DNA of 64,000 nt, taken from Caldisericia bacterium. Its GTDB lineage: Bacteria > Caldisericota > Caldisericia > UBA6126. The notes below the pieces were generated by a model, which worked only from the letters and a program-made list of their open reading frames with translations, was not told the origin of the DNA and did no database searches. Made by a program: the position numbers and the translations under genes. Where the stretch lies: the NCBI GenBank assembly GCA_035363255.1, contig DAOSES010000006.1, positions 25,544 through 89,543 on the forward strand, written 5' to 3'. Shown piece after piece: positions 3-48,100 of this stretch (positions are counted from its first letter, which is position 1; each line of letters starts with the position of its first letter).

Positions 3-1250
3 GTGAACAATGGAGAAACCTGGTCCAAGATGGGTCCAGGAACAATTGATCAACCTGTGGGAAACATAAACTCTATCGCTATCAATCCGAAAGATCCCTC
101 TCAGATTTTTGTTGCCACCAATGCAAGCGGAATTTATAAGTCAAGCGATGGCTCAGATACCTGGATCAGCTCAAGTCTTGGACTAAGCAATCAACATGTA
201 ACCACTATCTTGTATCATCCCGATAAAAGCAGTACTTTATACGCAAGTACTTTTGGAAGCGGTGTTTTTCGATCCACAGACAGCGGAACATCTTGGCAAG
301 AAATGAACCAAGGCTTAACTAACAAAACTGTCTATTCTATCTTTGTCGAAAACAACCGTCCCGATGTCTTGTATGCCTCAACTGATGCTGGTCTTTTTCG
401 AACATTACCAGGCTCTACTCAATGGGAACTTTTTGGAAATGGATTAGAAGGAGTTCCTGTGCGGGATGTCTTCGTCGATACAAAAAAGAATATTAACGTT
501 GCAGGCTCTTATGGGAATGGATGCTTTCTTTTGCACCAAATGCCCCCACCTCCTCAACTTCTCGAACCAAAAAACAACAGCGAAACAATATCTCTTCGTC
601 CAACCATGATTTGGAAAGAACCTCTTTATTATCTTGAACCTGTTTTTTATACCATCCAAGTGTCTGATAAAGAGAATTTTAGTGAAATTCGCTATGAGCA
701 TAAAGGAATTTCTGGAGACCAGTTTATTATCCCCAGAGACTTACTTCAAAAACATCGAAGCTACTATTGGCGAGTAAGATCCGAAATTGCCTCAGGGGGT
801 GGAAGATGGAGCGAAAAGTTTCAATTGCACCTTGTCACTGTGATAGTTTTGCGCATCAATCAAGCTATGATGAAGGTGGATAATAGCGATAGAGAAGTGG
901 ATCCCGGAAGAGGAACTGCACCCCTCATACGAAACAATAGGACTTTTCTCCCCATACGATCAGTTATAGAAAGTGTTGGAGGTAGCATTGAATGGGAAGA
1001 AAGCACTCGCACCGTTAGCATTAAACTAGCTCAAAATAGCATCGACTTGATCATTGATAGCGCTGAAGCAAAAGTAAATGGCAAAACACAACTTATCGAT
1101 TCTGCCGATCCCAAAGTGAGTCCCTTTATTCAAAATGGTCGCACGATGTTGCCATTACGTTTTGTTGGTGAATCTACCAACATGAGAGTGGAATGGCAAG
1201 CAGAAACACAAACTATCAGTCTTGTTTATCCGAATATTAAGCATGGCTAA
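3..1250 (+). CDS. 5'-truncated secreted cell-surface protein. It has BNR/Asp-box repeats, an FN3-like segment, and C-terminal copper-amine-oxidase-N-terminal-like (Cu_amine_oxidN1) anchoring repeats.
   Basis: ORF runs to the window edge. Repeated SxDxGxTW motifs (SSDGSDTW, STDSGTSW). The C-terminus carries GRTMLPLRFV and NNRTFLPIRSV motifs typical of the Cu amine oxidase N-like stalk domain. Confidence 0.75.
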   Translation: MNNGETWSKMGPGTIDQPVGNINSIAINPKDPSQIFVATNASGIYKSSDGSDTWISSSLGLSNQHVTTILYHPDKSSTLYASTFGSGVFRSTDSGTSWQEMNQGLTNKTVYSIFVENNRPDVLYASTDAGLFRTLPGSTQWELFGNGLEGVPVRDVFVDTKKNINVAGSYGNGCFLLHQMPPPPQLLEPKNNSETISLRPTMIWKEPLYYLEPVFYTIQVSDKENFSEIRYEHKGISGDQFIIPRDLLQKHRSYYWRVRSEIASGGGRWSEKFQLHLVTVIVLRINQAMMKVDNSDREVDPGRGTAPLIRNNRTFLPIRSVIESVGGSIEWEESTRTVSIKLAQNSIDLIIDSAEAKVNGKTQLIDSADPKVSPFIQNGRTMLPLRFVGESTNMRVEWQAETQTISLVYPNIKHG

Positions 1251-14778: not shown

Positions 14779-15672
14779 TCAAAGCACTATGCTTTTTTTT
14801 ATGTATTGGGCACTCGGACTGACAGCCAAACCGCCCATGGAGGTTTCTTTCAAGGAGCAGGGCATTAAATTGCCAATTTGCGCCATAGCATCAATCACCT
14901 CATCCAGAGGAATCAGGGTGGGGATTCCAGCCAATGCCATTTCAGCACAAGCCAGAGCATTGCTAGCCCCCATCACATTGCGCTTAACGCAGGGTAGCTC
15001 AACTCTTCCAGCTACCGGGTCGCATACCAGGCCCAGGATATTTTTTAACGCAAAAGCTGCAGCACTTTCCACCATGGAAGGTTCGCCTCCCATCAAATAT
15101 ACCAAAGCACCAGCACTCATAGCACTCGCAGAACCAACTTCAGCTTGACATCCATGGGTAGATCCCGATAACGAAGCTCGAAGGGCTATGATTTCTCCAA
15201 TTCCTCCTGCCACAAATAATGATTTTACCAATTCTTCGTCTGTTTTGCCATGGTTTTCTGCAATCGTTATCAAGACCCCAGGCATAACTCCACAAGCGCC
15301 AGCCGTAGGTGCTGCAACGATACGACCCATACATGCGTTTAGCTCCGAAACCGCTAAAACTCGACTTATCATGAGAGAGAAGTTTTTGCTTAGCAATGAA
15401 GCACCTTTTTGAGTAAATTGTTTCATGTGAAACGCTCCACCCTTTATTAATCCGCTTTTTGTCCGATTAGGCTCTTGTAGTCCTCTTTCGATGGATTCTC
15501 TCATAATGGTTAGATGATGATGCATTTTCCCTATCAATTTTGCTTCTGATATTTCAGTATTTTTGGCTTCGTAGCTCAGAAAAAAGTCGTAAAGATCAGG
15601 CAATGCCAAATCTTTCATTTGTTTGATAACATCAGCCCAGGCTTTGATGCGGATGCGTTTTGGTAAAGTCAT
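14779..15672 (-). CDS. sdaAA: L-serine dehydratase (Fe-S dependent), alpha subunit.
   Basis: AAPTAGACGVMPGVL and SLSGSTHGCQAEVGSASAM motifs. ATG overlaps the beta-subunit stop (TAATG). Confidence 0.9.
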   Translation of the reverse strand: MTLPKRIRIKAWADVIKQMKDLALPDLYDFFLSYEAKNTEISEAKLIGKMHHHLTIMRESIERGLQEPNRTKSGLIKGGAFHMKQFTQKGASLLSKNFSLMISRVLAVSELNACMGRIVAAPTAGACGVMPGVLITIAENHGKTDEELVKSLFVAGGIGEIIALRASLSGSTHGCQAEVGSASAMSAGALVYLMGGEPSMVESAAAFALKNILGLVCDPVAGRVELPCVKRNVMGASNALACAEMALAGIPTLIPLDEVIDAMAQIGNLMPCSLKETSMGGLAVSPSAQYIKKSIVL

Positions 15673-16343
15673 TATATGTCTTCTTTCCAACGAGGGACAG
15701 CTACAGCAGTATAAATGCCCTCTTTGTTTTTCAGAATTTCCATAAGGGTTTCAGGAACAGGAGTATCCAGTTTGAGTACTGCCAGAGCTCGTTCTTCAAT
15801 AGCATCTCGCGAAATCTGCATGTAAGCTATATTGATAGTATTTTTAGCCAGCAAATCGCCCACAAAAGCCACCATTCCGCAAGTGTCACGATACTCCAAT
15901 ATCAGAAGGTCGTGCTTACCCGAAAACTCGACCTTGTTATGGTTGATGTCCACAATTTTTGCATGCCCTCCGCCGATGGATATTCCACTGATGGTAAAAG
16001 GGTTTTGCTGATGCTGTTGGATCGTGATGGTGACGTAATTTGGATGTTTTTCAGGATCTTCCAAAAAAGTAAAATTAACTTCTATGCCCTCTTTTTTAGC
16101 TATTTCAAGGGCATTAGGGATGCGTTCGTCATCCATGGAAAAACCAAGCAAACCCCCTACCAAGGCATGCTGAGTGCCATGACCAGGGCCAGTATCTGCA
16201 AACGAATTGTACAGGCATATGCTTACTTTGTTAAATGGCTGGTGATAGACATTTCGAGCCAAAAGACCTATTTTGGCAGCTCCAGCCGTATGCGAGCTCG
16301 AAGGACCAATCATGACCGGGCCAATTACATCAAAAATCGACAT
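15672..16343 (-). CDS. sdaAB: L-serine dehydratase, beta subunit.
   Basis: N-terminus MSIFDVIGPVMIGPSSSHTAGAAKIG. C-terminal ACT-like domain. Confidence 0.9.
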   Translation of the reverse strand: MSIFDVIGPVMIGPSSSHTAGAAKIGLLARNVYHQPFNKVSICLYNSFADTGPGHGTQHALVGGLLGFSMDDERIPNALEIAKKEGIEVNFTFLEDPEKHPNYVTITIQQHQQNPFTISGISIGGGHAKIVDINHNKVEFSGKHDLLILEYRDTCGMVAFVGDLLAKNTINIAYMQISRDAIEERALAVLKLDTPVPETLMEILKNKEGIYTAVAVPRWKEDI

Positions 16344-17222
16344 TTATACTGCCCTTCCTTTTTCAAAGCTATGTTTTTCCAACATATGCCGAATCGCATG
16401 AGCTACGCCCCCCTCATTATTACTCGTACTGATAAAACACGCCAAGGCCTTAACTTGTTCCAGCGCATTGGCAACAGCAACAGGATAGCCTGCAGTCCTC
16501 ATGGCGTCAAGATCGTTGTAGTTGTCGCCAATAAAGAGCACAGACTGAATGGGAATTTCAAGGTAGGTACAAAGGTGGTGAAGCGATTGGCTTTTGGAAA
16601 CCTCAGGACCCATAAGCTCCATAAAAGTCTCTCCCTGCCATTCAAAGCTTTTTATAATACTAAACTCTTTGCCAAAGGCAGTATGGGTTTCAGCGATAAG
16701 CTGATGCATTTTTTCTTCAGAACCCAGAAGAATCAATTCGCTGATTTCTCCCTCCACAAAAACTTCGCTATCACACTGAAGAGAAAAATTGATTCCGTGC
16801 TTTTCCAAGTAGGGAAGATAAATCCCTTGGTAGGGTTTGTTGAGCCAAAGACAAGCATCTTCTAACCACCCCCTGGATATTACACAATGTAGATCGTGTT
16901 CCTCGGCTTTCCTATACACAAAATGGGCTATCTCAACGTTCAAAGCAATGCTTTGGAGGATGGTACGGCTTTTTGGACATAGCATCAAGGCTCCATTTTG
17001 AAGCATCAAGGGGGCATGGCTGTTAAAATGTTCCAGAAAAGGCAAGGCCGACACAAAGGACCTGCCAGTAGAGATGGTATATGGGATATCCTGCTCTTCC
17101 AAGAGCTTTAGAGCCAGGAGGTTTTCCTCGGGGATGCTTTTGTTATCATGCAAAAAGGTGCCATCCAGGTCAATCACGACCAACTTGATGGGATGAGGGC
17201 AACCATTCATGAGCTTAGCCAT
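16344..17222 (-). CDS. Cof-type HAD-IIB family phosphatase/hydrolase.
   Basis: HAD motif I VVIDLDGTFL, plus FIGDNYNDLDAM (motif IV). Confidence 0.8.
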   Translation of the reverse strand: MAKLMNGCPHPIKLVVIDLDGTFLHDNKSIPEENLLALKLLEEQDIPYTISTGRSFVSALPFLEHFNSHAPLMLQNGALMLCPKSRTILQSIALNVEIAHFVYRKAEEHDLHCVISRGWLEDACLWLNKPYQGIYLPYLEKHGINFSLQCDSEVFVEGEISELILLGSEEKMHQLIAETHTAFGKEFSIIKSFEWQGETFMELMGPEVSKSQSLHHLCTYLEIPIQSVLFIGDNYNDLDAMRTAGYPVAVANALEQVKALACFISTSNNEGGVAHAIRHMLEKHSFEKGRAV

Positions 17223-17856
17223 GAGCCACCGCAGTCATATATACCGGAAGTTCAGGAAAAGTTTTGTTGATTGCTTTTTTGCAGGCATGAAGAGTACTGC
17301 CCGATGTAAAGACATCATCGAGCAACAATACCGATGCTGGCTGAAAGGAGGAGAAAAGGGGAGCTTTTGCAGTAAAAGATAAAGAGGGATTTTTCATACG
17401 CTCCTGAGTTCTTAAGCCTTTTTGCTCTCGATCCTGCAGGCTGAAATCCTTATATAGAAGCTTTGAATATAGAGGCAAACCCGAGCAGACATGAAAACTT
17501 TGAGCAAGCAGTTCGACGGGTTGATATTTTCGACGAAACAATCGGTGCACCGAGCTGGGAACAGGCACAATAATGCTTTTCTGCCAGGGGTAATAGGCTT
17601 GAATGGTTTTCCAGAGTTCCTGTGCAAAAAAACGGGAAAGATGAAACGCCTTGCGATATTTGAACTTCAACATCAAATCCCGGGTCAGATCTACATAGTG
17701 AAAAGCAAACATGACCCAATCGCCCATAGGAGTTTGGCGAAGCGGAAGGATACAACGCGCTTTGTCCAGTTGGTCCGAGCAAGTAGGACAAGCTTGATAG
17801 GCTCGAGAGGTTTCGTTGAGGCAAATCGGACAAAGAGGGCTCATTTCAGCGAACAA
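17215..17856 (-). CDS. ComF-family protein: N-terminal double zinc ribbon plus phosphoribosyltransferase domain.
   Basis: CPICLN...CPTC zinc ribbon and PRTase motif LLLDDVFTSGSTL. Confidence 0.8.
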   Translation of the reverse strand: MFAEMSPLCPICLNETSRAYQACPTCSDQLDKARCILPLRQTPMGDWVMFAFHYVDLTRDLMLKFKYRKAFHLSRFFAQELWKTIQAYYPWQKSIIVPVPSSVHRLFRRKYQPVELLAQSFHVCSGLPLYSKLLYKDFSLQDREQKGLRTQERMKNPSLSFTAKAPLFSSFQPASVLLLDDVFTSGSTLHACKKAINKTFPELPVYMTAVAHG

Positions 17857-20768
17857 ACAAAATCCTCCAGGTCCTTTTGATTGAGACTATTTCTTTCTTC
17901 CAGCTCCTTCAATGCACTTTGATACGAAACCGGGCTTTGGGCATAGGTCGAAAAAGCTTGAAGCTGAGTGTTCATTTCATCCTCCGTAGCACCTTTTCGC
18001 CAGGCATGGCTCAAAGATAGTTGCTCGCAGAGGGCAGCCACCTTGGGGTCATAAATAATGGGCAAAATCGGCTTGCTCAGGCGGGAGAGAAAAACCAGAA
18101 AATGCAAACGCATCCCCACGCCAAAGCTGGCTCGAGACAAAAGAGAAAACATCTCTTCTGGCAAAAGGAAGGTATCTACCAGGTAGGCAGGCTGTTTCAT
18201 CAGCTCCATGACCTTGCGGGAAAAACGACTGTCGTAGGTGCCATAAAAGGGCGTAAAAACACAGGGTTTTCCGCTCAGTTGGCTCAATTCGTCCAGACAA
18301 CGTGCAAAAGTTTCTATTTTGCTGGAAGTTTCCCGGCTGGGTCCCAGCGACACGGCAATAAAGTCCTGATAGGCGGGATAGGGATCCTGCACTTTCTGTG
18401 CCTGGTATGAAAAAATAGGATCCACCGTGAGTTGGCTTTTGCGAATTCCCCAGGAATGTAATAGATCTTGAGAATGCTGATCTCGCACGCTGATTTTGCT
18501 GGCTCGTGCCAGGATTAGTTTGGATAAACCACGATTTAAAGGCGAATGCAGGGGGCCAATCCCATTAGCATATACAAAAACACGCTTGCCCATCAGACGG
18601 GATAAAGCGATGATTCCAAGATAATACCAGGGGCTTTTGAGACTCGTCACATCCTGGATCAGACCTCCCCCGCCACTGATAATGCCATCTGCCCGAGAGA
18701 GCTCCTTCCAAAGAGAGCCCAGGGCAAAACGCTGGCTGGAATAGACTTCGGCAAGGGTGGTGGTCATGTGGGGGTTGATCGAAAGCACTGAGATTTGAAA
18801 GGTTTCGGCATGGGACAAGGAGTGCAAGTCTTTGATCAGGGTTTGAAGGATAGTTTCGTCGCCGATGTTTCCATAGCCATAATAGCCCGATATCAAGATC
18901 CTACGAAGGGGTGAACGAAGAGCTTTTTTCATCCTCAGCAAGTCGGGCACTGTTTTCAGAAAACGACGCAAGCGAAGGCGAGGTTGGCTCAGAATGCGGT
19001 AGAGCCATTCGAGGTTGAGCTTCAAAGCCCATCCTGGGGCGCGCTTCATTTGACCCGCCCACAAGTCGAGACTTCCGCCCACTCCCATAGCCACTTTCAC
19101 TTTTAAGCTTTGTTTGTGGCGATGGATCAAGCAATCTTGCTTGCCAGCTCCCATGCCTACCAGAAGGAGGTCGGCTTTGCTGGCGTTGATGCTTTGGATG
19201 ATCCCCGATTCTTCAGCTTCATCAAAGAAACCATGATGCGTTCCGGCAATAAGCAGGCGAGGGAAGCGTTCTAATAGGTTTTTTCTTAGCAAGTCGAGGC
19301 TGGCTTCACTGGTGCCCAGAAAAAAGATCTTCCACTGCTGAATTTCAGCACGCTTTAAAAGCTCTTCTCCCAGCTCTACTCCAGCAACCTTTTCGCTGAT
19401 GTATTCCCCCATCCATCGGGCAAGCTTCAAAATGCTTATTCCATCAGGCACCACCAAGTCAGCTTCCTCGATGCTTTGCCTGAAAGAGGCTTCTTTCTGA
19501 GCACGAGAGATCATCTCCAGATTGATAGTGATGATTTGATGACAGCTTTGACCCTGCATCCATTGGTCAATTCGGGGCAAAAGGTCTTTCATGGAAAGAT
19601 TATCCACTGGAAGACCCTTCATAAATATGCGATCTTTTTTAAGTTTTCGATACAAAAGGGCAGTTTTTTCCACCATGCGATCCTGGGTAAAAAAGCGACG
19701 CACCATTTGCGCTCCATTTTCGGCTAGAGCTTTGCGTTGATCAGGATTTTGGCTCAGAGCTATGATCGCCTTAACCAGCTCCTCCTGTTGGGAAAGAATG
19801 CGTCCGTTGTAGCGGTCCAGCAAGAGCTCCTGGATGCCTCCCACTTTTTTTGAAACCACCACCCGTTTGGCATTCATACATTCGAGCAGAGCTATTCCGA
19901 GAGCCTCCGATTTGGGCGAAAACAGCATCAAGTCGCAGGCAAAGATATAGGGGCGAGGATTTTTTTGAAAACCCACCCAGCGCAGGTGATCGGCTATGCC
20001 AAGGTCTTGAGCAAGCTTTTTCAAACTGGTTTCCTCTTGGCCTCCTCCAATAATCAGCAGGTATAAAGCTTGCTTGGATTGCTTCAAGCAGGCAGAGAAA
20101 ATTCGTAGCATTTCGTCGTAGCCCTTCACCTTGACCAAACGCCCCAAAGAGCCAAGCACAAAGGCATCCTGAGGGAGCTTCCACTCCTTGCGAATCGTTT
20201 CTCGAGAAGCCTTTTCGTAGGCTTCATCCGGGGCAAGAAAGTCCACCCCATTTTTGATGATAGTGATTTTGTCGCGATCAATGCCACGACGTTCCAATTG
20301 GGTGGCTATTTCATACGAAACCGCAATAAAATGATTGCTTCGGTGCAGGCTCAACTGGTCGATCAGGGTAAAGAGGAGCCCCACCAGGATATTTTGATAG
20401 TCATAAAAGGGATGACTATGATAGGTGGTGATCAAAGGCAGAGAGGAACGGTAAAAAGCCAGACGACCATACATATTGGCTTTCAAGCCATGGGTGTGGA
20501 TAATGTCGAGACGATGTTCTCCGGCCCAGGCATGGATGGCCTTGAATATGCGAGGGTCGGCTTTAGACCTCAGAGGATAAGCAGTAAAATGCACCCCTTC
20601 AAGCTTTTCGACCGAGTGGGACAGCGCACCTTCGCCCAAAGAAAAAAAGTAGCAAGCAATGCCTTGATCCGCCAAGCGTGAAAGGAGGGCCAAAATATGC
20701 GTCCGAGCTCCTCCAGCATCGCCACCATCTGCAACAAAGCCAATTCGTCTTACCACTCGTTCATTCAT
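17841..20768 (-). CDS. Tri-domain cell-wall glycan enzyme: GT4 glycosyltransferase, WecB/TagA/CpsF (GT26) glycosyltransferase, and polysaccharide pyruvyl transferase (CsaB-like).
   Basis: An N-terminal segment of about 390 aa with GT-B fold motifs. The middle has VVPDGISILKLARWMG...VGMGAGKQD (WecB/TagA family). The C-terminus has ISGYYGYGNIGDE...MRLHFLVF (PS_pyruv_trans). Start is ATG 20766-20768 (975 aa) or GTG 20786 (981 aa). Confidence 0.75.
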   Translation of the reverse strand: MNERVVRRIGFVADGGDAGGARTHILALLSRLADQGIACYFFSLGEGALSHSVEKLEGVHFTAYPLRSKADPRIFKAIHAWAGEHRLDIIHTHGLKANMYGRLAFYRSSLPLITTYHSHPFYDYQNILVGLLFTLIDQLSLHRSNHFIAVSYEIATQLERRGIDRDKITIIKNGVDFLAPDEAYEKASRETIRKEWKLPQDAFVLGSLGRLVKVKGYDEMLRIFSACLKQSKQALYLLIIGGGQEETSLKKLAQDLGIADHLRWVGFQKNPRPYIFACDLMLFSPKSEALGIALLECMNAKRVVVSKKVGGIQELLLDRYNGRILSQQEELVKAIIALSQNPDQRKALAENGAQMVRRFFTQDRMVEKTALLYRKLKKDRIFMKGLPVDNLSMKDLLPRIDQWMQGQSCHQIITINLEMISRAQKEASFRQSIEEADLVVPDGISILKLARWMGEYISEKVAGVELGEELLKRAEIQQWKIFFLGTSEASLDLLRKNLLERFPRLLIAGTHHGFFDEAEESGIIQSINASKADLLLVGMGAGKQDCLIHRHKQSLKVKVAMGVGGSLDLWAGQMKRAPGWALKLNLEWLYRILSQPRLRLRRFLKTVPDLLRMKKALRSPLRRILISGYYGYGNIGDETILQTLIKDLHSLSHAETFQISVLSINPHMTTTLAEVYSSQRFALGSLWKELSRADGIISGGGGLIQDVTSLKSPWYYLGIIALSRLMGKRVFVYANGIGPLHSPLNRGLSKLILARASKISVRDQHSQDLLHSWGIRKSQLTVDPIFSYQAQKVQDPYPAYQDFIAVSLGPSRETSSKIETFARCLDELSQLSGKPCVFTPFYGTYDSRFSRKVMELMKQPAYLVDTFLLPEEMFSLLSRASFGVGMRLHFLVFLSRLSKPILPIIYDPKVAALCEQLSLSHAWRKGATEDEMNTQLQAFSTYAQSPVSYQSALKELEERNSLNQKDLEDFVCSLK

Positions 20769-20840
20769 ACCCCAAAAGTATAGCACAGCATAGCGTAAAA
20801 AAGCACAAACAAACTATTGTTATAGATACATTGATTCATA

Positions 20841-21206
20841 GGGACGGGGGTGTTGACTCAATGACACCAATGACGTTAAACACTCTTGAATACAGCATAA
20901 AGAACAAAAGCAAAGATACTCGCAAGCACCGAAAATCTATAATTTTACGATAGGTATGTTTTGAAGCAATAGCCAGTAAAGCTTTATGAATAAAGAAATT
21001 ATATGTGATATGACAGTTTTTGAGAAAACTTAAAAAAATAAAAACTTATAAAAAGCACCATAAAGATTGATTAAAAGTGATTCTGTGGTTTACCTACACA
21101 ATTATCCCTGCTTTACTTACTTGGTCCCAGAAAAGATTAAAAACCTTACTATGACTATATTTAAATGAGTGAAAAGTGAGTCAACACCCCCGTCCCTCTG
21201 ACTCAA
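20841..21206. mobile_element. MITE-like non-autonomous element, copy A (about 366 bp). It has perfect 20-bp terminal inverted repeats (GGGACGGGGGTGTTGACTCA), an AT-rich interior and no ORF.
   Basis: Left TIR 20841-20860. Right TIR 21177-21196 is the exact reverse complement, followed by a conserved tctgactcaa that closes a 7-bp hairpin (tgagtca/tgactca). Confidence 0.8.
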
Positions 21207-21250
21207 TTTATAATCAAACAGGCAGAGCTCCTCGCAGATGAGCTGAATGA

Positions 21251-21278
21251 TTGAAGATTACTAAATACGACCTATAAT
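21251..21278 (+). promoter_or_regulatory. Near-consensus sigma-70-type promoter (TTGAAG-16-TATAAT) for the wHTH regulator gene, about 45 nt downstream of MITE copy A.
   Basis: -35 TTGAAG at 21251-21256; -10 TATAAT at 21273-21278. RBS GGAGG at 21300-21304; ATG at 21310. Confidence 0.6.
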
Positions 21279-21309
21279 ATATATCATATGAACTATGATG
21301 GAGGTCAAT

Positions 21310-21636
21310 ATGCTGGCAAAACTCCTTGGAGGGGAAACAGCAGAGAAGGTTTTAATCTACATGACGGTGTATGAAGAAGGATACGCAAGACAAATAAGCC
21401 GTCTTTTTGGTGTTGCCTTCGACCCTGTCAATAAACAGCTGAAAAAGTTGGAAGATGCTGGGATTTTGGTGGGTATAATGAAAGGGCGCACCAAGATGTT
21501 TTCCTGGAATCCACGATATCCCTTTTTAGCGGAGTTGAAGGCTTTATTTAAAAAAGCCTATGAATATCTTCCAGAAGAGGATAAAGAAAAGTATTACCGA
21601 CAAAGGACTCGCCCAAGAAAAAGCGACAAAAGGTAA
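21310..21636 (+). CDS. Small winged-helix (MarR/ArsR/PadR-like) DNA-binding regulator with a basic C-terminal tail.
   Basis: AEKVLIYMTVYEEGYARQISRLFGVAFDPVNKQLKKLEDAGIL is a wHTH pattern. Strong RBS 5 nt upstream of ATG 21310. The ORF-track start at 21295 is less likely. Confidence 0.6.
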   Translation: MLAKLLGGETAEKVLIYMTVYEEGYARQISRLFGVAFDPVNKQLKKLEDAGILVGIMKGRTKMFSWNPRYPFLAELKALFKKAYEYLPEEDKEKYYRQRTRPRKSDKR

Positions 21637-22621: not shown

Positions 22622-22624
22622 AAA

Positions 22625-22647
22625 AGAGGGAGCCTTTAAGCCCCCTC
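22625..22647 (-). terminator. Rho-independent terminator downstream of the PQQ-propeller gene (minus strand); it is also placed after the plus-strand membrane-protein gene.
   Basis: Minus strand reads gaggg-ggcttaaaggct-ccctc followed by TTTTT. Confidence 0.5.
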
Positions 22648-24491: not shown

Positions 24492-24497
24492 ATAGTC

Positions 24498-27080
24498 ATG
24501 AAGCCCCAAATTAGAAGAACTATTTGGATCATAGGCAGTAGTGTGCTGGTTTTCACATTAATGACTGTTATGTCCTGGTTTTTATTGCCAAAGTCTGTTA
24601 CAGAGCCTCCGAAGGATGTCATCAAGAAGAAGGAACCAGTTTTAGCAGAGCCGAACTTAAAAAACAATACTATTGTCTACTCAGAACACGATCAGCCAAA
24701 GTTAGAGCGAATATTTTCCAACACCAAATTGGTAGCATACGATTTTCCTCAAGCTCCTGCAACGATTCATGCTCCTTCCGATAGGGGTCAAAAATCCGAC
24801 CAACTTATCATCAGCGACCATTTGTATCGCAAAAAAATTGTTTTGAAAACCACAGGAAGCCCTAACCCGATGAAAAATTTCCCGATTTGTATCGACCTGG
24901 ACACCCAGCAATGGATTGAAGAGGCCAAGCTGTCTATGATCAGCGAAAACCTATACTTTACCGACGAAGATGGCATCACCCTGCTTCCCTTTCATATTGC
25001 ACATGGCTATGGAAACGAGGCTACCCGTATATGGCTGATTATTCCTGAGCTTCCAGCATGGACAACGCAAAAGGAAATTTATTGTTACTATAGCAGGTCT
25101 TCGGATTATCCAGGTTTTAAACAAATTCCAGGCTTCCCACTCCAGGAAAGCTATTACGGCTGGTATGTCTTAGACGAGTTAAAAGATAAGCATGTGGTGG
25201 ATTTGTCGGGAAACATGAATCCTGCGGAACTGATTATTTCTTCGTATGAATCGGGCTGGTGGGGGCACAACTTTTCCGAGAATGAATCCTATATCTTTTT
25301 CAATGATTGGCGAAAATGGTATGAGCATGAAAGAAACAAGGGAGTTTATCTTACGTTGCCTGGAAAAAACCTTCAAGCACTATCCCAAAAAGGTGCTGTG
25401 GAATTCTGGTTCAAGCCTTATTATATCACTGAGCCCATCATCCAGCATTTTATGACCGATACAGGTCAGCATATCATGATAGGTATGCTTCCCGATCGAT
25501 CCATCTTTCTCCAGTTGGGATCCCGTCAAAACCGAATCATATGGAATACTTTTATTCACCAGGGCAATTGGTATCATCTCCAGCTCAGTTGGGATTTTGC
25601 AAAAAAGCAGGCAAAGCTTTACCTTTACGGAAAAGAAGTGCCTGTAAGATCTGGGCTTTCTTCTTTTTCCTGGAACCCTCCGACAGTATTAGGAGATCTG
25701 CATTTTGGGGGCTACTATGTAGAAAGTTCAAGTTATGGTTTTTCGGGTTTCATGGAAGGATTTCGTCTCCACAAAGCACCCTTGTCTCCCGAGCAGGCCA
25801 ATCAAAACCACAAATACAACCATTTTCGCTATTATTTTCCTACCCATACCATGGAAAAAGAAGAAATTGCTCAGAGCAACAAAGAAGACCAGCTTTCTCT
25901 CGATTTTACTACGAGCAATACTCTCCCCGTGAATGAAAAGATTTCGATCAATACCATCTATGCCATGCCCATTCATTACAGCGATGCTTGGAGTGGAAAA
26001 GTTTACACTGGCAAAGAGGATTTGGTCAACATTATTCAAAATCCTGACGAATACCAGGAAGTATTTGGTATGAGCTCTCATTTCTATTCCTATGTGGGCA
26101 CGGAGGTCAGCATTCAAGAAAGTTTTCTTTTGGAATACATTGCTTTGAAAATTAATGAGCCCAAGCTTATTGAGGATATCAAGATCAGTTTTTCCTGGCT
26201 GGTGGATTGTAAGCACCCATATTACCCCTACCTTTATAGTTCCTTGTCTTGGACGGATAAAGCTCTTGCCTGGCTTTTCCCTCCTGCAAATGCCTGTGGT
26301 CCTTTTTATTCGTATAAGCTGTTGGGGGAAGCCAAGTTGAAGCTGGTGGGCATTGTGAATGGAGTTTGCTGGTATAAGCCGGAAAAACCTTTATATGTAA
26401 ATCCCCTGGCTACAATTATGCAATTGGAATACTTACCCTCCAAAGAAAAAGGAGAGCTCCATATCAAAATGGAAGACTTAATTTTTCTGGACAGTGCCAA
26501 GCAATTCCATCGATCCAAACTACATCGATCCAAACCTGAGCTTTTGTTTGAATATGAGCGAATTGATGAAGAAATCTATCATCATTTTAATTCTGAGTAT
26601 ATTGCCAAGCAGATGCCTATGGAGAAAGGATCTGTGGAGTTGACCACCAATGAGCAGAATGAACTGGTTTTAATGTTGCGCAATATTGGAACGGATCCAA
26701 TTCAGTTAAACGTGAAAAGTAGATATTATTTTCAAGAAAACCTCTTTACTCACTTGTTGATTTCAACAGAGGATCAGCAAACAATACTCGAAATTAGTTT
26801 GTTAGATTTTTACCAGTATCTGAATGATGCTCCTATCCCTGTGGGACATTACCTCTACATACCCCTTCTCTTTGAAGATGAAAGTAAAAACTATGGCGAC
26901 TTAAAAGTGACGCTTCTGCGAAAAAAAGGTTATCTTGATGATTTTGACCAACAGACAAAAATCATTTCCTGGGCATTAGACAACAAGCCTTTCGAATTTC
27001 GTTCCATCAACGAGGAAGGGATGATTTGGAAGGAAGTCCACAAAGACAGCCAGGGTCGTTTGCGCATAGGAGGAGACTAA
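24498..27080 (+). CDS. Membrane-anchored (signal-anchor) protein with a LamG/concanavalin-A-like jelly-roll domain; 860 aa.
   Basis: N-terminal TM IWIIGSSVLVFTLMTVMSWFLL. The central region (WYHLQLSWD...KLYLYGKEV...GFMEGFRLHKAPLSPEQ) matches the LamG pattern. Stop overlaps the next start (TAATGA). Confidence 0.6.
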   Translation: MKPQIRRTIWIIGSSVLVFTLMTVMSWFLLPKSVTEPPKDVIKKKEPVLAEPNLKNNTIVYSEHDQPKLERIFSNTKLVAYDFPQAPATIHAPSDRGQKSDQLIISDHLYRKKIVLKTTGSPNPMKNFPICIDLDTQQWIEEAKLSMISENLYFTDEDGITLLPFHIAHGYGNEATRIWLIIPELPAWTTQKEIYCYYSRSSDYPGFKQIPGFPLQESYYGWYVLDELKDKHVVDLSGNMNPAELIISSYESGWWGHNFSENESYIFFNDWRKWYEHERNKGVYLTLPGKNLQALSQKGAVEFWFKPYYITEPIIQHFMTDTGQHIMIGMLPDRSIFLQLGSRQNRIIWNTFIHQGNWYHLQLSWDFAKKQAKLYLYGKEVPVRSGLSSFSWNPPTVLGDLHFGGYYVESSSYGFSGFMEGFRLHKAPLSPEQANQNHKYNHFRYYFPTHTMEKEEIAQSNKEDQLSLDFTTSNTLPVNEKISINTIYAMPIHYSDAWSGKVYTGKEDLVNIIQNPDEYQEVFGMSSHFYSYVGTEVSIQESFLLEYIALKINEPKLIEDIKISFSWLVDCKHPYYPYLYSSLSWTDKALAWLFPPANACGPFYSYKLLGEAKLKLVGIVNGVCWYKPEKPLYVNPLATIMQLEYLPSKEKGELHIKMEDLIFLDSAKQFHRSKLHRSKPELLFEYERIDEEIYHHFNSEYIAKQMPMEKGSVELTTNEQNELVLMLRNIGTDPIQLNVKSRYYFQENLFTHLLISTEDQQTILEISLLDFYQYLNDAPIPVGHYLYIPLLFEDESKNYGDLKVTLLRKKGYLDDFDQQTKIISWALDNKPFEFRSINEEGMIWKEVHKDSQGRLRIGGD

Positions 27081-30000
27081 TGAAAAGTTTTGGAAAAGCT
27101 GTTTCCAGACTCTTATCCTGGATTATCGTAGCCTTGCTCTCGTTGGGGCTAGCCCTGCCTTTCGGTCCCAGGCCTGTGAAAGCTCAAAGCAGCACTCTGG
27201 CAGACCTATACCTTGATTTGCCTTTCAACTACCGTATGGAAGCCTTCAAGCCCAAGTTTAACCTTGAAGACTACCAGCTCTTTGAAAAGTTTTTTTTACA
27301 TGCGAGTTTGTTTGAAAACCGATATATTCTCAAACGTTCCTATTTTGCCAATTACAGCAAATCTTTTACCTTGATAGACAAGCGTAGTAATGATTTTTAT
27401 ACCCTCCATCTACAGATTTTAAGCTACCTGGTCTTGGAAGATAAGGATAAGATTGAATCGGGGATTCCTTTTTATTTGTCTTTTATCCAAAACTCCCAAG
27501 GGCAAGCTCTGGCCTTTATCCATCGTTCGGAAATGTATGATTTCCCCTTGTATGGCGTGCTTTGTGAAAGCGATGGAAGTTTGATCAAGGAGTGGGAGCT
27601 GTCAAAAAAACCCAATTTAAGTACGTATTCCTATTTTACTCTCTATCAAGAGCTAGCTTCAGATTTGACAAATTCTGGTATGCAGGCCTTTAACAAACCG
27701 CTCAGTGCTTTGTTTTCTGCTTGGATGTGGGGCACTTATCTGAGTGAGCAGAATATACAGACTTCCAACCCCAATCCCTATACCTGGGACTTGCTCGGAG
27801 TTCCCAAAGAGCGAGATGATTTGATGGCTTATTGCTCCGAACAATATCTCATGGAGGAAACCGTGTATTCCTGGAACGAGGATGATTCTCTGCAAGCACT
27901 ACAATGTATTCAAATCCTTTTTCAGGATAGGCGGGAGCTTAGCCAAACTACTTTCACATTTGATCGATCGTATCTTGTGCATCACCCCAATGAAACTATG
28001 GTTTATCTTCCCCTGCTTCAGGTAGTGACGCGTCAAGGTAAAGGCTCCAGTGGAGCCGCTCTATCTGGACTGAAAGATGCTCAAGGCAGGTGGAATTTTT
28101 GGATTCAAGGTAATTTTTACTTTTCAGATCAGACTTATCTGAGATCCCCATCTCTTTATCATACCTTGTTTTCTGGCTATCCTGCTTCTGATAGTTCTTA
28201 TGTGCATTATCTTACGACTCTTGGACTTGCTCTCTATCAGCAAATAGATTCTTCTTGTCTTCCTATGATAGTTTTGTCCCATGCGATTGCGCTATATGAA
28301 GCCAATACTTATAAGAATACAGCGCATACAGCTGATCTTGCGCTAGAAGAACAAACCATGGCTCCTGTTCCCCGAGGAAAACACGCTCATTTGTATCCTG
28401 ATGCTGAAGTTTTTGCAAAGCAGTTTGCTGAAAATACCGAAGTTCAGTCTGACACTCTGGAATATTCCAAAGAGGACTTGGATCAATTAGTACATTTATT
28501 CTTAAACTCAGTTAACAAGCAAGATAATGAGCTTGCATCCTATGATTTTACTCTTCACAAATCGTTTCGCCTTCTCGACCAGAAAACTAAGCAAAGCTAT
28601 CGCTTTTTGCCCAGTTTTAACCTTACGGTCAAGTTTAAAAACCATTCAAGCTTTCCTTTTTTCTCAAATTCTGCCCTTCAATTGCCCGATAAGACCTGGC
28701 TGATTTACACTGGTTATGGTAGCCTCTGTTTCAAGAGTGGTTTTGTAAGTGATTTAGCTTCATGGCCATCCATGAGTATGTATTTAAGCGAGATATATCT
28801 CTCCTACCTACTTCATTATAGTTACCTGCTTCGAAAGCCAATCACCAACGAAGAGCTGAGAGATTTTACTTTCCTCTTTGGGGCAATGTCATGGAGTAAG
28901 TTTGATCAATTGACGAGAGTCATGCCTTATCCAAGCCTAAAAAAGACAACATTATCTTCCGCCAACATGGTGGTAACTGCCAAACCCCGTAAGGTGCAAA
29001 GAGGTGCGAATTATTATATCGACATGCGACTCACTAAAAACCTGGAAAAGAGTGAATGGATCAAGATAAAGTTTCCCAAAGCTTGCGTTTTCCCCTCTCA
29101 AGAGGGCACCAAACCACCAGGAGACCATCTTCCCGAATACATGGAACTCGACTACGAAAACAACATTATAACACTTACCCTTATGAAAAAACTCTTCATA
29201 AAAGAATATGAGGATGGTTGGATACGTATTACTATTCCTGATGTTTATGGCTTCAAAAATCCTCATTTGAGTGGAGCTTATTATTTTGAGTTTTCTACCT
29301 CTGCTGAGATCGAGTGGCAAAAGTCAGACTCAGTCTTGTTTGTGGAAAGCCGTATAGGAGTGCCTGAAGGTATTCCTGAAGTTAACACTGTTCCAAGTAT
29401 CGCAGGGCAAAATGCAAGCTATACGATAGCCTTTAATGTTGGTGAGGGTGGATGGCTTAAACAAAATGAAGCCCTTATAAGGCTCAGATTTCCCAAAGAT
29501 ACGGCATTTTCCATCAATCAGATCCCTGGCGAAATGATTTTAGTTAATGGAGTCCCTTTATCTGTTCGCCCCTCTCCCAGAGGGCAAAACCTTATTTTCA
29601 ACACTCCCGTGGAAGTCGAAGATTCTGAGAGAGTGGTGATCCAGATTGATGCTAAAGCGGGAATTATCAACCCTGCGCAAGCGGGAGACTATACTATTGA
29701 AGTATCCACCCTGCCTGCAGACCCTGAGTGGGTAGCTTCCAAAGCTTTTACGATTAGTCAATCATTCGCTATGGAAGTCAAACCGAGAAAAATAGGGAGC
29801 TCTGCAAGCTATAATTTCACTTTTGAAATAGAAAAAACTCTGGAAAGCTCGGATTGGATTAAACTTGGCTTCCCTCAAGGTACCATCATTGATCCTCCCA
29901 TCCCCGAGCAAGAGCCCGAAAGGACGCTACGTTTAAAAAGATTCAATGAGATTATTGTTATTGGACTTTCTCCTTGTGGTCCTTGTCCAACTCTTCCCAA

Positions 30001-32158
30001 GATCGAGTATTATCCCGATGGCTCCATGAAAAGCATCCAGGTATATACGCCCATTAAAATAGATCCAAGTCTGCCAGGATACAATATTATAAACATAGTT
30101 TGCCCTGAGGAATGCGGATTTAAAACTCCCGCAAAGGAAGGGTTTTATGAGTATAGGGTTTCCACCCAAAGGGAGACCAAAGAAATCAGCACAAGCTTTG
30201 AAATTGTTCAAAGCCAGATAGGTGTTCCGACAGGGGTGCCTCAGGTGATGGTCGATCCTCCGAGCGTGGATGCTCAAGCAGGATACAAGGTCAATTTTAA
30301 TGTAGGTCGAGGGGGATGGTTAAAGGCTCATCGTGATTTTATCCGTTTACGCTTTCCCAAAGGCACTCTTTGGGCTGTTTCTCCCGACAAATTCAAGCCC
30401 GAGTGGATCAAAATCAACGGCAAACCCTTATCCGCCAAAGCAAATCTGAGCTCTGAAACCCTTAGCCTGTTGGTGCCCATGGATATTGAAGATTCGGAGC
30501 GGGTGTTGGTGGAAATCAGCGAAGCTCTTGGCATAACAAACCCTCCCATAGCCGGGGAATATCAAGTGGAAGTAGCTACCTCAGCAGATGCCTGGGCAAA
30601 GTCTGAAGTCTACACGATTACAGGAGAATTGGAGGAAGACAGAATAAAGATAGTGAGTTTTATGATTGATCCTCACCCTCCCTATGCTCATGTCATTAGT
30701 GACTATCAAATTAGAATTCGTTTCAGCGATACCTTGCCCCCCAAAGAAGGCGATCAAGTTCAAATTGATTTGGGCCATCAGGGTTTATTTCTCACCAAAA
30801 CCATTTCAGATCCAAAAGATATGAAGGGGCTTTCTTTGCTTTTGAGGAAAATTCCAAATCCTGACCCTGGGGAATACACTTTGAAGGTTACCCTTCTGGA
30901 AGAGAGCGCAAGCTATACTTATCGAATATTGCATCCAATTCCTACGAGCCGTATTATTCTCGAAGGAGGGAAAAAAGGTAAGAACAATTGGTGGCTTGAG
31001 CCTCCGAAGATTTCATTCGAAGTATCCGATCCTGAGGCTAAAGTGGTTTTCTGGTGGAACGATGATAAGCCAAAGCCAACCAACGTTTCTTATCAAACGC
31101 AATATCCCTTGCCCCGCGTGTTGGATGGGGGTCAATTCAAAGCCAAGCTATGGTATTATGCTTACACCGAATATGGAGAAGAGGAACCCAAGTTTGAAGA
31201 AATCTGGGTGGATACGGTTTTGCCCGAAATAGTTATCGAACAACCTTCAAGCCAAAACGTACTTACTCGAGAGAAAGAGCTTGAAATCAGTGGGCGTGAC
31301 ACCTTAGTTAAAATCTCAATCTATGGAAAAGAGGTTTTAATATACGACACCCACCTTCTCAAGATTAATGGAGTGCTTGTGGATAGAGACCCAAAAGATG
31401 GGAGCTTCTCGCATCAGCTCCTTCTCGAAGAAGGCGCAAACCTGATCCTCATTGAAGCGGAAGACGAGGCTGGCAATCGATTGACCAGAGAATACAAGGT
31501 AGAGCTGGATACCACTCCTCCTGATATTCAGATAGAGTCTCCAAAAGCTATGCAAACGGTAGTCAACCGTGAAAAGAAAGTGCTCATCAAAGGGCGTTTG
31601 GACGACCCCGGAGCAGAGCTGTTAATTCAGGGAAAGATCGTTGATATAGCCGAGGATGGGCAATTTGAGCATGCTTATATTGTCTCAACAGGGCTCAACA
31701 CAATTTCATTAATGGCAAGCGATAAGGTGGGTAACATTCAGAAAAAAGAGCTTCAATTCTGGTTTGGACATACCATTCTCATGCAAATAGGCAACAAAGA
31801 AGCCAGCAACAACGGAATTAAACAGCAACTCCTACTGGCTCCCTTTATTCAAAATGGACGCACCCTGGTGCCTTTTCGATTTATCGGAGAAGAGCTGGGA
31901 GCTAGAATCGATTTTACGTTCCATCCAACAAGCAGATTGGTTCATACAGTGTCCTACCAACTGGAAGAAGACCTGATTGTACTCACCATCGGAAGCAAGA
32001 CTGCTCAGGTGAATGGAGAAGCTGTTGGTCTGGATGTTGCACCTCAGATTATCCAAGGCACTACCGTGGTGCCCATCCGCTTTATCGCAGAAAACCTGGG
32101 TTGTGAAGTGCTTTGGTCGGTACCCGAGCAAAGGATTAGTATCAGCTATCCTAGATAG
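27079..32158 (+). CDS. Giant secreted surface protein (about 1693 aa). It carries Ig-like repeats, a C-terminal [AED(E/D)AGN...LDTxPP] module, and two Cu-amine-oxidase-N-like anchoring domains.
   Basis: Signal peptide MKSFGKAVSRLLSWIIVALLSLGLALPFGPRPVKAQS. Three diverged repeats of about 120 aa (NFNVG(R/E)GGWLK...RLRFPK). C-terminal GRTLVPFRFI and GTTVVPIRFIAENLG motifs. Confidence 0.75.
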
Positions 32159-45119: not shown

Positions 45120-48100
45120 ATGCTTAAACGCCTTATCATTGCTGTTCTGATCAGTCTGATGATGATGGCATGGGCTTTTCCCTTTGAGATCCATACTAGC
45201 AATGCTCGAGATTTGCGAATGGACTTCAGGACTGATCCTGAACGTTTTGTGCTTGAAGATTCTTATCTTCATCTTTATGTTACCTGCAACGATGCATCCT
45301 GGCTCACCATCGAACTACTCATGGGTCAACAAACGATATTATGGCAAGAGCATATCGAAGTATCAGCTCAAGTGGAAAAATACCTTCAAATTCCAGTAGT
45401 TTATCCTTTGCTTGAAGATTTTGAAGTTCGTATCCTTGCACAAGCTCAAAACAGCACTTCCAAAGCTCAAAATCAGCGAAAATTTGTTATTCAAAGAAAA
45501 CAGCAAGGTTCTTTAAGCCTCCAGGGAAGAATCACACAGTGTTCTCCATTTCAACCTTTGGGTTTGGAAGGTGCATTGATTGAAATTATCAGTGGCCCGT
45601 CTGCTGGAAAAGAACTGACTGAAGATGAGGGCTATTTTGTTTTTAAACAGCTTCCTCCTGGTACCTACAAGGTGCGAGTAAGTCATCCCTGCTCATCTGA
45701 TGCTCTCGAAAAGATAATATTTCTTGATGAAAAAACTTCTTTCCAGGAATGGTGCCTTCAAACCTACCGGATACCCGACATGGATTTATGGCTCAACAAG
45801 CCTTCAGGGAGTGTTTTTGAAGTGGGCGAAACCATGACGGTTTTTTTACGTTCCTCTGTTTCAATGAAAGCTGATGTAATGATTACAGATTCTCGTGAGA
45901 CCAAACCACTATTTCGGGGCTTACACCTTCAACAAGACCAGATACAACGGTTTTTTTGGCGACCTACACCAGCACAACGCTTGGGCAAGGTCGAGTTGGC
46001 CTTGGTTCCTGCTGAAGAACAGCTCTGCGGTGAGGCTCGTTACCAATTTCAACTCATATCCAACATGCAAACTGGAGTCATCGGAGGTAGAGTACGATTG
46101 GGTGGCAAGGCGATGCAAGGAGTTAAAGTATATTTACCCTTGCAATCTACAGCCCCAGCTTTTACTGACGAACGAGGCTTTTTTGAAATACCCGATGTTC
46201 CTGCTGGAATCCACGTTGTTCGTGTAATGACCAGCGAAGACATGTATGCAGACAAGCATGGGGTTGAAGTTAGCAAAGGCAAAATCACTGAAGGAGTGGA
46301 AATTGATCTTCCTAATGAAAACATTAATTTTGTATTGGATCCACCTCAAATCTTTGCCACCACCCATGAACGCAGGGAAAAACAAGTCCCATTATTAATA
46401 TCACTCGACGAAGGAAGCATTAACAATCTTCAAGTTAAAATAGTGGAAGGACCCTCTGAGTTATCTGTTTTCCCCTCTTCTCTGCCTTCCTTATTGCGCG
46501 AGAAACGACGTGTTTGGCTCGTAATACCTGAAAACTGCCCTGTAGGAGATCATTCTGTCACAGTGCGTATTGGCAACAACCTTCACTCGGTTGAATGGAA
46601 GGGACTTATCCAGGTCACTGGTCTGTCTCGAGGCACTTTTGATGCTTCGATTGCACCACTCAAGAAGACAGTCATACAGGGTGAAGAAGCTATTTTTGAG
46701 GTGAAAGTTGAGAAATTCACCAATTTTAATGCCAAAGTATCAATCAAAGCTGAAACGCTTCCTCCTTATTCCGAATTTCAAGCAGAGGAAGCCAAAACAG
46801 CCCCCGCAAGTATTCAGTTTAAAGTACGAACCAGTTTAAACACTCCCCCAGCACAATATAGTGTATGGATCAAAGCTGAAGGAGATCAGCTCAGTTCCTG
46901 GTATTCCTGCCAACTTGAAGTGTTAAAAACTGGAGGCACTCTTGCAAGTGTACCTGATAGCACCTGGAATCCCATCGTTTCCGCAGGGCAACACGTGCAA
47001 TCCACTATCTCCTTATGGAGCCCCAAAGGAGAAACACGCCAGGTTCGCATCCAATTGGCATATGGACCCACCTGGCTCAGATTTGAAAATCGCAACATAG
47101 GAACTGTGGGTGAGAGTCCTATCGAGGTTCCGTTGATAGTTCAACCCGATAATCAAGTGGTTTCTGGAGCATATAACTATTCAATAAATCTGATCTATGG
47201 AGAGCGAAGTGAGGGTTTCTTCAAACTGGAAGGTCAGATCTATGTCCAACAAAATGAACTCGATACCCCCACCAACCTAAGAGCAAGATATATCAGAGAA
47301 AAAGGTAGCATTACTCTTACCTGGGGTCCCCCTGCAGAAGCGGCAGATCAGGTCGTAGGATACAACTTGTATCGATCATTACGATATCCCACCCTTGAGC
47401 ATGCTGTGCCTCTCAACTACAGCTTGATCACAGATCGTACCTACGTAGATGATGACTTTTTAGTAGGAAAATCTTACTGGTATGTAGTTCGAGCAGTAAG
47501 AAGCGATGGTAGTTTGAGTCCTCGATCCAACACAGCCGAAATTCGGATCAATCCTTCTTTTGTTTTTTCAATGAAATCTTCTTTCAGCAAAGGGGAAAAA
47601 GCTGTCTGTTTTGTGGGCGAACAAATAGGACTCACCTTAAAACCTTCTCATTCAGCTTCAGTGGAAGTTTGGATCAAGCAGAATGAAAGTTCCGTTTTAG
47701 TGTTGAGCCAGTCCTTAATTGGCAAAGCTCTGCAAGATTTATACTTTATTACTCCAGACCTGGAGGGAGAAGCGCTCATAGAAGTGAAAGCAGTAAAAGA
47801 GGATGGACAGCAGTCAATTTCCCAGCATTCCATTAACATCAAAAAAAATAGGAAGGGAAACATACAAGTCAAAGGAAAGCTCTTTAATTCCCTCTATCAA
47901 AGACCCATATCTCATGCGCGTATTTGGGTGTGGGATGGATTTAGCAGAGCTGAAAGTTACACGGATGCAGAGGGTCATTTTGTCTTAAAGGATCTGGAAG
48001 AAGGAATGTATCGATGGATGGTGGAGTATGCAGGCACCAAAGCTCTCACTGAAGCTCGATATGTCAGCGCAAATCAAAATGAACCATTGGAACTTGATCT

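Follow-up and report, generated by a model that had tools for sequence, protein, structure and literature searches.

A linkerless GT4-TagA-CsaB fusion protein in Caldisericia, a candidate trifunctional enzyme of secondary cell-wall polymer synthesis

We describe here a gene for a three-module fusion protein found in 64,000 nucleotides of DNA from a Caldisericia bacterium (contig DAOSES010000006.1, positions 25,544 to 89,543, of assembly GCA_035363255.1). We call this whole stretch the window, and coordinates refer to it unless another record is named. The gene lies on the minus strand and encodes, from the N- to the C-terminus, a glycosyltransferase of family 4 (GT4), a TagA-like glycosyltransferase of family 26 (GT26) and a CsaB-type ketal-pyruvyltransferase (Table 1). 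An earlier note on this DNA had proposed such a three-domain fusion, in this order and with a length of 975-981 amino acids (aa), and the open reading frame (ORF) together with the Pfam and NCBIfam models shows that it was exact. The deposited copy of the protein, HOI24478.1, is annotated only as 'polysaccharide pyruvyl transferase CsaB'. All four Pfam domains of the fusion exceed their gathering scores by a wide margin: Glyco_transf_4 (PF13439) at aa 25-182 (2.3e-26, 93.3 bits), Glycos_transf_1 (PF00534) at aa 195-360 (8.5e-33, 113.7 bits), Glyco_tran_WecG (PF03808) at aa 442-608 (4.5e-57, 193 bits vs a threshold of 27.4) and PS_pyruv_trans (PF04230) at aa 640-913 (1.4e-34, 120.8 bits vs a threshold of 25.3). 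The search for domain borders that the note had suggested thus detects both the WecB/TagA and the pyruvyl transferase domains, far above their thresholds.

Reading of the start region places an ATG at 20768, six codons downstream of the GTG at 20786 that opens the full ORF. This ATG is the probable start of the fusion, because the resulting 975 aa equal the length of the 100%-identical protein P0001 and agree with the N-termini of the four closest homologs. The modules follow each other head to tail, without linkers. Homology to GT4 enzymes extends to about aa 382 and homology to TagA begins at about aa 385; the TagA tail ends at about aa 627 and CsaB starts at about aa 628, with the CsaB motif ILISGYYGYGNIGDE at 630. 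An AlphaFold2 model of the full-length protein, computed on the family alignment A1 described below, has a pLDDT of 85.5 and a pTM of 0.81, and the high pTM suggests a defined arrangement between the modules. The gene has a higher GC content than the window (0.488 vs 0.414) and is uniform in this respect (0.49 per module, 0.52-0.53 at third codon positions). Its 83%-identical relative is likewise GC-raised (0.463 vs 0.415); more distant relatives do not share this trend.

Table 1. Position of the fusion gene, its modules, its operon neighbours and the surface-protein genes discussed in the text.
Feature	Position	Strand	Evidence and remarks
Full ORF, GT4-TagA-CsaB fusion	17841..20786	minus	981 aa from GTG 20786; no interruption
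Probable coding sequence of the fusion	17841-20768	minus	ATG 20768, 975 aa, N-terminus MNERVV; stop TGA 17841-17843
GT4 module, retaining GT-B glycosyltransferase, aa ~7-383	19638..20768	minus	PF13439 + PF00534, Foldseek
TagA/GT26 module, aa 384-627	18906..19637	minus	PF03808 4.5e-57; phmmer to 7mpk 3e-45
CsaB-type ketal-pyruvyltransferase module, aa 628-981	17844..18905	minus	TIGR03609, PF04230; directly follows the TagA tail
Promoter-like TTCTCA-17-TATAAT, 10/12 matches	20998..21026	minus	~210 nt upstream of the start; consensus match only
ComF-family gene, phosphoribosyltransferase-like, N-terminal zinc-ribbon	17215..17856	minus	TIGR00201 1.1e-24, below cutoff
Cof-type HAD-IIB phosphatase gene	16344..17222	minus	TIGR00099 145.3 bits vs cutoff 137; PF08282
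L-serine dehydratase beta	15672-16343	minus	ORF; SDH_beta on syntenic genes in L007, L008, L010
L-serine dehydratase alpha	14779-15690	minus	ORF; SDH_alpha on syntenic genes in L007, L008, L010
873-aa BNR/Sortilin-propeller protein, C-terminal part, ends in Cu_amine_oxidN1	3..1250	plus	
1710-aa surface protein, Glucodextran_B + tandem Cu_amine_oxidN1 at the end	27026..32158	plus	Pfam; inside the ~14.7-kb segment
1849-aa surface protein, CarboxypepD_reg repeats, Glucodextran_B, tandem C-terminal Cu_amine_oxidN1	45120..50669	plus	Pfam
559-aa secreted protein, fn3 + C-terminal Cu_amine_oxidN1	L011 2194-3873		

The fusion is not confined to this contig. The earlier note had called for a survey of genomes. 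Among 5.8 billion proteins searched, the same architecture appears in 21 clusters formed at 90% identity; their proteins are 45-100% identical and most have a length of 972-983 aa. The explanation that three genes were merged by a sequencing or assembly error can be set aside for all practical purposes. The ORF contains neither a frameshift, which the note had considered as a sign of separate genes, nor an internal stop. Moreover, the same uninterrupted co-linear architecture, with conserved junction sequences, recurs in independent assemblies across these independent clusters. We aligned 17 sequences of the family end to end, without domain breaks (alignment A1). Mean pairwise identity is 57% in GT4, 46% in TagA and 53% in CsaB, with 102, 40 and 97 invariant columns respectively. 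Conservation is similar across the three modules and none of them is decaying.

The distribution of the family is narrow. All cluster members named to a taxon are metagenome-assembled genomes (MAGs) of Caldisericia, and the remaining named record bears no label beyond 'bacterium'. A scan of contigs with A1 gave at least four full-length loci, and Caldisericum exile may have escaped it. Among the matches listed, the full-length relatives come from Caldisericota MAGs and from one contig titled Calditrichota (DAIMET010000004.1). This label is probably a taxonomic discrepancy or a mislabelling, for the fusion protein of that contig (HPJ12069.1) is named 'Caldisericia bacterium'. When 1.84 billion representatives at 50% identity were searched exhaustively with HMMER, the sole co-linear full-length protein was P0018, from Caldisericia. 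Proteins with GT4, TagA and CsaB in precisely this order form a single narrow family, restricted to one phylum.

A single contig of a Caldisericota MAG seems to bear a pair of paralogous triple fusions. P0002 shares 83% identity with the window protein; P0012 (1099 aa) shares 52% and has its CsaB domain split by an insertion. Their loci, L003 (2274-5549) and L007 (1306-4227), stand in records of 37,512 bp. Since the two loci share no sequence, they are probably the opposite ends of one contig, deposited in opposite orientations.

The central module belongs to the WecG/TagA/CpsF superfamily (TIGR00696, 144.5 bits vs a cutoff of 69). It retains a complete C-terminal tail, the part that serves active-site closure and membrane binding in stand-alone TagA. 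Its GT-E fold matches the solved structures 7mpk, 5wb4 and 5wfg with Foldseek TM scores (target) of 0.91-0.93 and root-mean-square deviations of 1.8-2.0 (0.93 and 1.9 for 7mpk). The reference enzyme is TagA of Thermoanaerobacter italicus, in which D65 is the catalytic base, R214, R221 and R224 are the arginines of the tail, and T37, N39, Q167 and Y137 contact UDP-ManNAc (PMC8784642). Our alignment to this enzyme is gap-free across the core and places T37, N39, D65 and Q167 at T420, N422, D448 and Q550, all invariant in A1. In the tail, E210, R214, R221 and R224 correspond to E593, R597, R605 and R608, invariant in 17/17 sequences.

The C-terminal module passes the CsaB equivalog model TIGR03609 at aa 629-926 (260.2 bits vs a cutoff of 213.1). 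The active site of CsaB is described for Paenibacillus alvei, from mutagenesis and a docking model, not from a crystal structure (PMC10435577). To place its residues we relied on motif spacing in A2, a wider alignment of six Caldisericia and seven outside CsaB modules. Spacings were checked for T94-R148 (54), R148-R207 (59, verified in a Paenibacillaceae sequence) and R306-H308-K328, and the first and the last of these are identical in the P. alvei enzyme and the window protein. The residues of the phosphoenolpyruvate (PEP) site, R148, R306, H308 and K328, become R768, R893, H895 and K915, invariant in both A1 and A2, and T94 becomes T714. On the acceptor side, Y14 corresponds to the family-invariant Y636, and F16 to Y638, which is Tyr or Phe in the family. 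The model of the module (pLDDT 91, pTM 0.89) has a two-Rossmann, GT-B-like fold, and its best matches among solved structures are GT-B proteins and 2-epimerases (TM 0.5-0.63). Sequence and profile searches of the PDB with this module returned only chance matches, so no solved relative is detectable in this way and mapping onto Pvg1p through sequence is not possible.

The N-terminal module resembles HepE, MshA and BshA (Foldseek TM, target, 0.77-0.85). Its EX7E glutamates E294 and E302, as well as R216 and K221, are invariant in A1. The module is intact, and the trisaccharide unit predicted by the earlier note would be plausible.

TagA and CsaB of P. alvei, put together in one pot, make Pyr-ManNAc-GlcNAc-PP-lipid in vitro, as reported in 2018 (PMC6030368). 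CsaB of this species needs a lipid-linked disaccharide and pyruvylates ManNAc only when it is lipid-linked (PMC6030368, PMC6801904). The chemistry that had been ascribed to the fusion, transfer of ManNAc to the GlcNAc-PP-lipid by TagA and pyruvylation at the lipid stage by CsaB, agrees with this in-vitro work (PMC6030368). Both catalytic sets are present in the window protein, in reaction order, and hence the same two P. alvei steps are the best-supported reading. We thus propose, with a probability of about 0.65, that the fusion is a trifunctional enzyme, cytoplasmic and peripheral to the membrane, in the synthesis of secondary cell-wall polymer (SCWP). A TagO/WecA-type enzyme encoded elsewhere would make GlcNAc-PP-undecaprenol. 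The inverting TagA module would then move ManNAc from UDP-ManNAc to O4 of GlcNAc, with D448 as the base and with R597, R605 and R608 holding the diphosphates. CsaB would use PEP, bound by R768, R893, H895 and K915, to place a 4,6-ketal pyruvate on the still lipid-linked ManNAc, and the putative role of GT4 would be to extend this lipid-linked unit by one more sugar, in alpha linkage. The product would be exported and attached to peptidoglycan, where pyruvyl-ManNAc would give the wall an anionic epitope, to which SLH proteins encoded elsewhere in the genome would most likely bind. Substrates, order of steps, fate of the product and ligand role are all inferred. As for the order, TagA most likely acts on the primer and GT4 later, since R597, assigned to the diphosphate of the acceptor, is conserved. 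The SLH partners are in line with a published survey that counts, next to a single CsaB each, seven SLH proteins in Caldisericum exile and five in Caldiserica UBA4770, with no OmpM, OmpA, Pal or Lpp listed for either (Witwinowski et al.). We count these two genomes in favour of such partners.

The fusion gene opens a densely packed operon on the minus strand (12530-20786), the first three genes of which overlap. The start of the ComF-family gene lies within the end of the fusion gene, either as TTG at 17856, with GGAGGA 6 nt upstream, or as ATG at 17844, in an ATGA overlap with the stop. The gene for the HAD phosphatase and the ComF-like gene have 8 nt in common (ATGGCTAA). The serine dehydratase pair (14779..16343) is contiguous with the HAD gene, and the operon also holds a 399-aa protein without family match, BioY and a 154-aa protein. 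This operon context is conserved: the order fusion, ComF, HAD, serine dehydratase is kept in relatives whose fusions are 83%, 66% and 48% identical. Serine dehydratase was considered as a supplier of pyruvate to CsaB and set aside, since CsaB uses PEP and nothing else supports the link.

The upstream side of the fusion is not conserved, and its neighbours differ in L007 and L008. In particular, a conserved upstream partner was sought in L008, where a 429-aa gene overlaps the start of the fusion, and was rejected, as this gene is unrelated to the propeller gene upstream in the window. The promoter-like sequence of Table 1 is weak evidence, given 17 such sites in the region vs 11.2 +/- 3.3 in shuffled sequences. 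In the 66% relative (L010), the fusion abuts an NMO-Pth-Mfd-MazG block at ~170 bp, and in the window the two are 14.7 kb apart. The intervening segment (20787-35515) contains a possible small winged helix-turn-helix gene, a 278-aa membrane protein, a PQQ-like beta-propeller, an 860-aa LamG protein, the 1710-aa Cu_amine_oxidN1 protein and an ABC-type cluster. Given that the fusion abuts the block in the 66% relative, the surface-protein genes beside it look like a lineage-specific insertion at a variable spot and not like conserved partners. At 32763-35106, three successive minus-strand ORFs are each exactly 262 aa long; the last is an ABC ATPase, the two others have no Pfam match, and a 200-aa ORF without match follows.

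The earlier note had also pointed to three large surface proteins in the window, which would lack SLH domains and use Cu-amine-oxidase-N-like domains instead. All three indeed lack SLH. Cu_amine_oxidN1 (PF07833) is found in the 1710-aa and 1849-aa proteins but not in the third, of 860 aa (24498-27080), which has Laminin_G_3 and a weak DUF2341 only, with neither anchor detected. The 860-aa and 1710-aa ORFs overlap by 55 nt in different frames, so that the second may start later or the two may formerly have been one gene. Seven full-length homologs of the 1849-aa protein, 34-100% identical, carry PF07833 in 7/7 cases and SLH in 0/7; they stay within a close clade and are uninformative on anchor swapping. 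Some share contigs with fusions: P0259 (contig of 92,842 bp) with P0004 and P0261 (contig of 186,484 bp) with P0008. Cu_amine_oxidN1, present on very different passenger domains, looks like the module that this organism generally uses for surface display. The publications consulted on PF07833 treat it as a module predicted to bind the wall, frequently part of wall hydrolases, and define no ligand.

Two further genes of the window encode multi-domain proteins. A 401-aa protein (41540-42745) combines an N-terminal dual-specificity or protein-tyrosine-phosphatase-like domain with tandem MazG nucleotide pyrophosphohydrolase domains, an unusual combination that is also present in L010. A 536-aa protein (54163-55773) joins a SpoIIIAA-like AAA ATPase, a phosphotyrosine-phosphatase-like domain and R3H, and is conserved on 103-kb contigs; the window itself belongs to a contig of this size that recurs in several metagenomes.

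A number of observations speak against a trifunctional SCWP enzyme as proposed above. The fusion does not reach the NCBIfam TarA equivalog NF041710 (165.7 bits vs a cutoff of 350), and at the position of Y137 the window protein has F520, most homologs a Tyr. The GT4 module reaches no NCBIfam equivalog (stp2, 104 vs 409; BshA, 102.6 vs 273.7), and its donor, acceptor and place of reaction are thus not fixed by an equivalog model or by other evidence. In CsaB, the 'loop 1' mutant R207D of the P. alvei enzyme is inactive, and R207 lies 3.7 A from the acceptor in the docked model (PMC10435577). The equivalent residue is a glycine, G815, in 17/17 sequences of A1 and in the 6/6 Caldisericia of A2, and an arginine in the 7/7 non-Caldisericia modules. 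The handling of the acceptor, and even the activity of CsaB, may differ as a result. One might hence suppose that the module pyruvylates another sugar, such as that attached by GT4, or that it borrows residues of the fused TagA tail for the acceptor, as CsaB starts directly behind this arginine-rich tail. But Y636 and all residues of the PEP site are conserved, TIGR03609 scores above its cutoff, R207D is a charge reversal and not a glycine substitution, and the P. alvei active site is a docking model. We find such a shift of specificity rather unlikely. Since the other residues are strictly conserved, we think that CsaB activity is kept, with another residue possibly contacting the acceptor. 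The genomic surroundings raise further doubts. In the window and ~10 kb on each side (~84 kb), we saw no gene for TagO/WecA, MnaA, a flippase or an LCP ligase, and no SLH protein, so that the pathway context is drawn from homology. The same ~84 kb, about 5% of the genome if its size is 1.5-2 Mb, encodes four secreted proteins with a C-terminal Cu_amine_oxidN1 (873, 1710, 1849 and 559 aa).

These proteins suggest that the same chemistry might serve another purpose, either a general anionic wall polymer or a non-SLH anchor ligand, in a lineage that lost SLH. The 1849-aa homologs all keep Cu_amine_oxidN1, and contigs are shared with fusions in three lineages. Furthermore, 3/5 Caldiserica genomes in the survey were not scored with both SLH and CsaB (Witwinowski et al.), and the pyruvylated SCWP of P. 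alvei was suggested to be essential as its only anionic wall polymer (PMC6801904). Yet, with some seven SLH genes per genome, as in C. exile, about 0.3 of them should fall within 84 kb by chance. CsaB and SLH are found together very generally, and Desulfotomaculum reducens has PF07833, whose ligand is not defined, alongside SLH proteins. Such a change of purpose is unlikely, although it is the alternative that we would consider before any other. Its most specific form, in which the pyruvylated polymer is the wall ligand of tandem C-terminal Cu_amine_oxidN1 domains that replaced SLH as the general anchor, strikes us as a long shot. If true, it would give a first ligand to a widespread orphan wall-binding domain, and it would fit the family-specific change of R207 to Gly in the acceptor loop of CsaB. 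One might also speculate that the fusion is a self-contained polymerase. GT4 and TagA would alternate on the chain, with GT4 adding GlcNAc or another sugar to O3 of pyruvylated ManNAc and TagA the next ManNAc, CsaB would modify each repeat, and the whole polymer would be built on the cytoplasmic lipid carrier. Bifunctional polymerases resemble the two-transferase chain architecture of the fusion, which has two transferases of different stereochemistry and a modifying enzyme in one chain, and other lineages show recurrent fusions of GT4 with CsaB and with TagA. The polymerisation of pyruvylated SCWP repeats has been stated to be unknown (PMC6030368). Neither a polymerase nor a flippase gene is found in the ~84 kb, but absence from so short a region says little. 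The linkage made by a retaining GT4 would be alpha, in contrast to the backbone of P. alvei, which is all-beta (PMC6801904). Above all, the invariant R597, equivalent to R214, which is assigned to the lipid diphosphate of the acceptor, fits an acceptor close to the primer better than the distal end of a chain. For this reason we rate a polymerase below the stepwise trifunctional enzyme, and regard it as improbable, less so than the PF07833 ligand but more so than a shifted CsaB specificity.

If the stepwise trifunctional enzyme is the right reading, the fusion would make a pyruvylated lipid-linked wall-glycan unit by a compact route, in one soluble-expressible chain. It would be a possible convenient reagent for the synthesis of SLH ligands and for work on ketal-pyruvyl transfer, which has no close crystal structure. 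The zero-linker junction and the loss of the loop-1 arginine make a testable case of substrate hand-over or of a composite active site. For the biology of Caldisericota, it points to a lineage whose surface proteins seen so far use a Cu_amine_oxidN1 anchor, and raises the question of the receptor of the pyruvylated polymer there.

Fusions between these module types are found in other orders as well. We sorted the best 150 matches of the 50%-identity search by module HMMs derived from A1, with a Pfam check on nine. They include 54 GT4-CsaB fusions (~735-750 aa), 44 CsaB-TagA fusions (~580-730 aa), 6-8 GT4-TagA fusions (~630 aa), three CsaB-GT4 fusions, two GT4-CsaB-GT4 fusions and one permuted triple, GT4-CsaB-TagA (P0024, 987 aa); these counts tell of the existence of fusions and not of their frequency relative to stand-alone enzymes, because full-length scoring favours multi-module proteins. 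The CsaB-TagA class includes 612-aa proteins of the cultured Caldicellulosiruptor bescii (ACM61139.1), C. acetigenus and C. kronotskyensis, and many Bacillota MAGs. In RefSeq, these fusions carry the name of one enzyme or the other, and our literature search found no publication that discusses any of the GT4/TagA/CsaB fusions. The modules have been fused independently in several orders, which argues that all three serve one pathway. We sought the class from which the triple fusion might derive, and the module-level scores favour none. Among the modules of the window protein, none stands distinctly nearer to one fusion class than to another, and the nearest outside relatives are 33-44% identical; hence the Caldisericia family is an old, separate lineage of fusion. 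These results also qualify the claim of the earlier note that the fusion supports direct coupling of TagA and CsaB. The inference is valid, but the coupling is not new: the one-pot synthesis of 2018 preceded it, CsaB-TagA fusions make up at least 44 clusters, and the fusion only corroborates what biochemistry had already shown, other natural fusions being common. The earlier interpretation is thus partly supported, right in outline while overstating the significance of a kind of fusion that is common.

How does the window protein compare with known systems? TagA of T. italicus (5WB4, 5WFG, 7MPK, 7N41) shares its GT-E fold with the central module at 36-38% identity, and its catalytic and donor-contact residues are kept except Y137. 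It is, however, a stand-alone peripheral membrane protein of 244 aa, whereas the tail of the window module runs straight into CsaB. TagA of P. alvei (PAV_RS07420) and the CsaB of this species (PAV_RS07425) catalyse the same two consecutive reactions that are predicted here (PMC6030368, PMC10435577), and the TagA base and tail arginines, as well as R148, R306, H308, K328 and Y14 of CsaB, are conserved in the window. But in P. alvei these are two separate proteins, encoded in a locus with tagO and genes for SLH proteins. In the window they are one polypeptide together with GT4, in a housekeeping operon without SCWP or SLH neighbours, and R207 is replaced by glycine. The CsaB-TagA fusions join the same two activities, in modules 35-40% identical to those of the window. 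Yet, they have the reversed order, with the TagA tail free at the C-terminus, they lack GT4, they keep the loop-1 arginine and their hosts are Bacillota, not Caldisericota. The GT4-CsaB, CsaB-GT4 and GT4-TagA proteins and P0024 use the same module types in other compositions or orders and are 26-36% identical overall. The Caldisericia family is set apart by its three-in-one architecture, with the modules arranged as the reactions follow each other, by a TagA tail that passes into CsaB with no linker, and by the family-wide loss of the loop-1 arginine.

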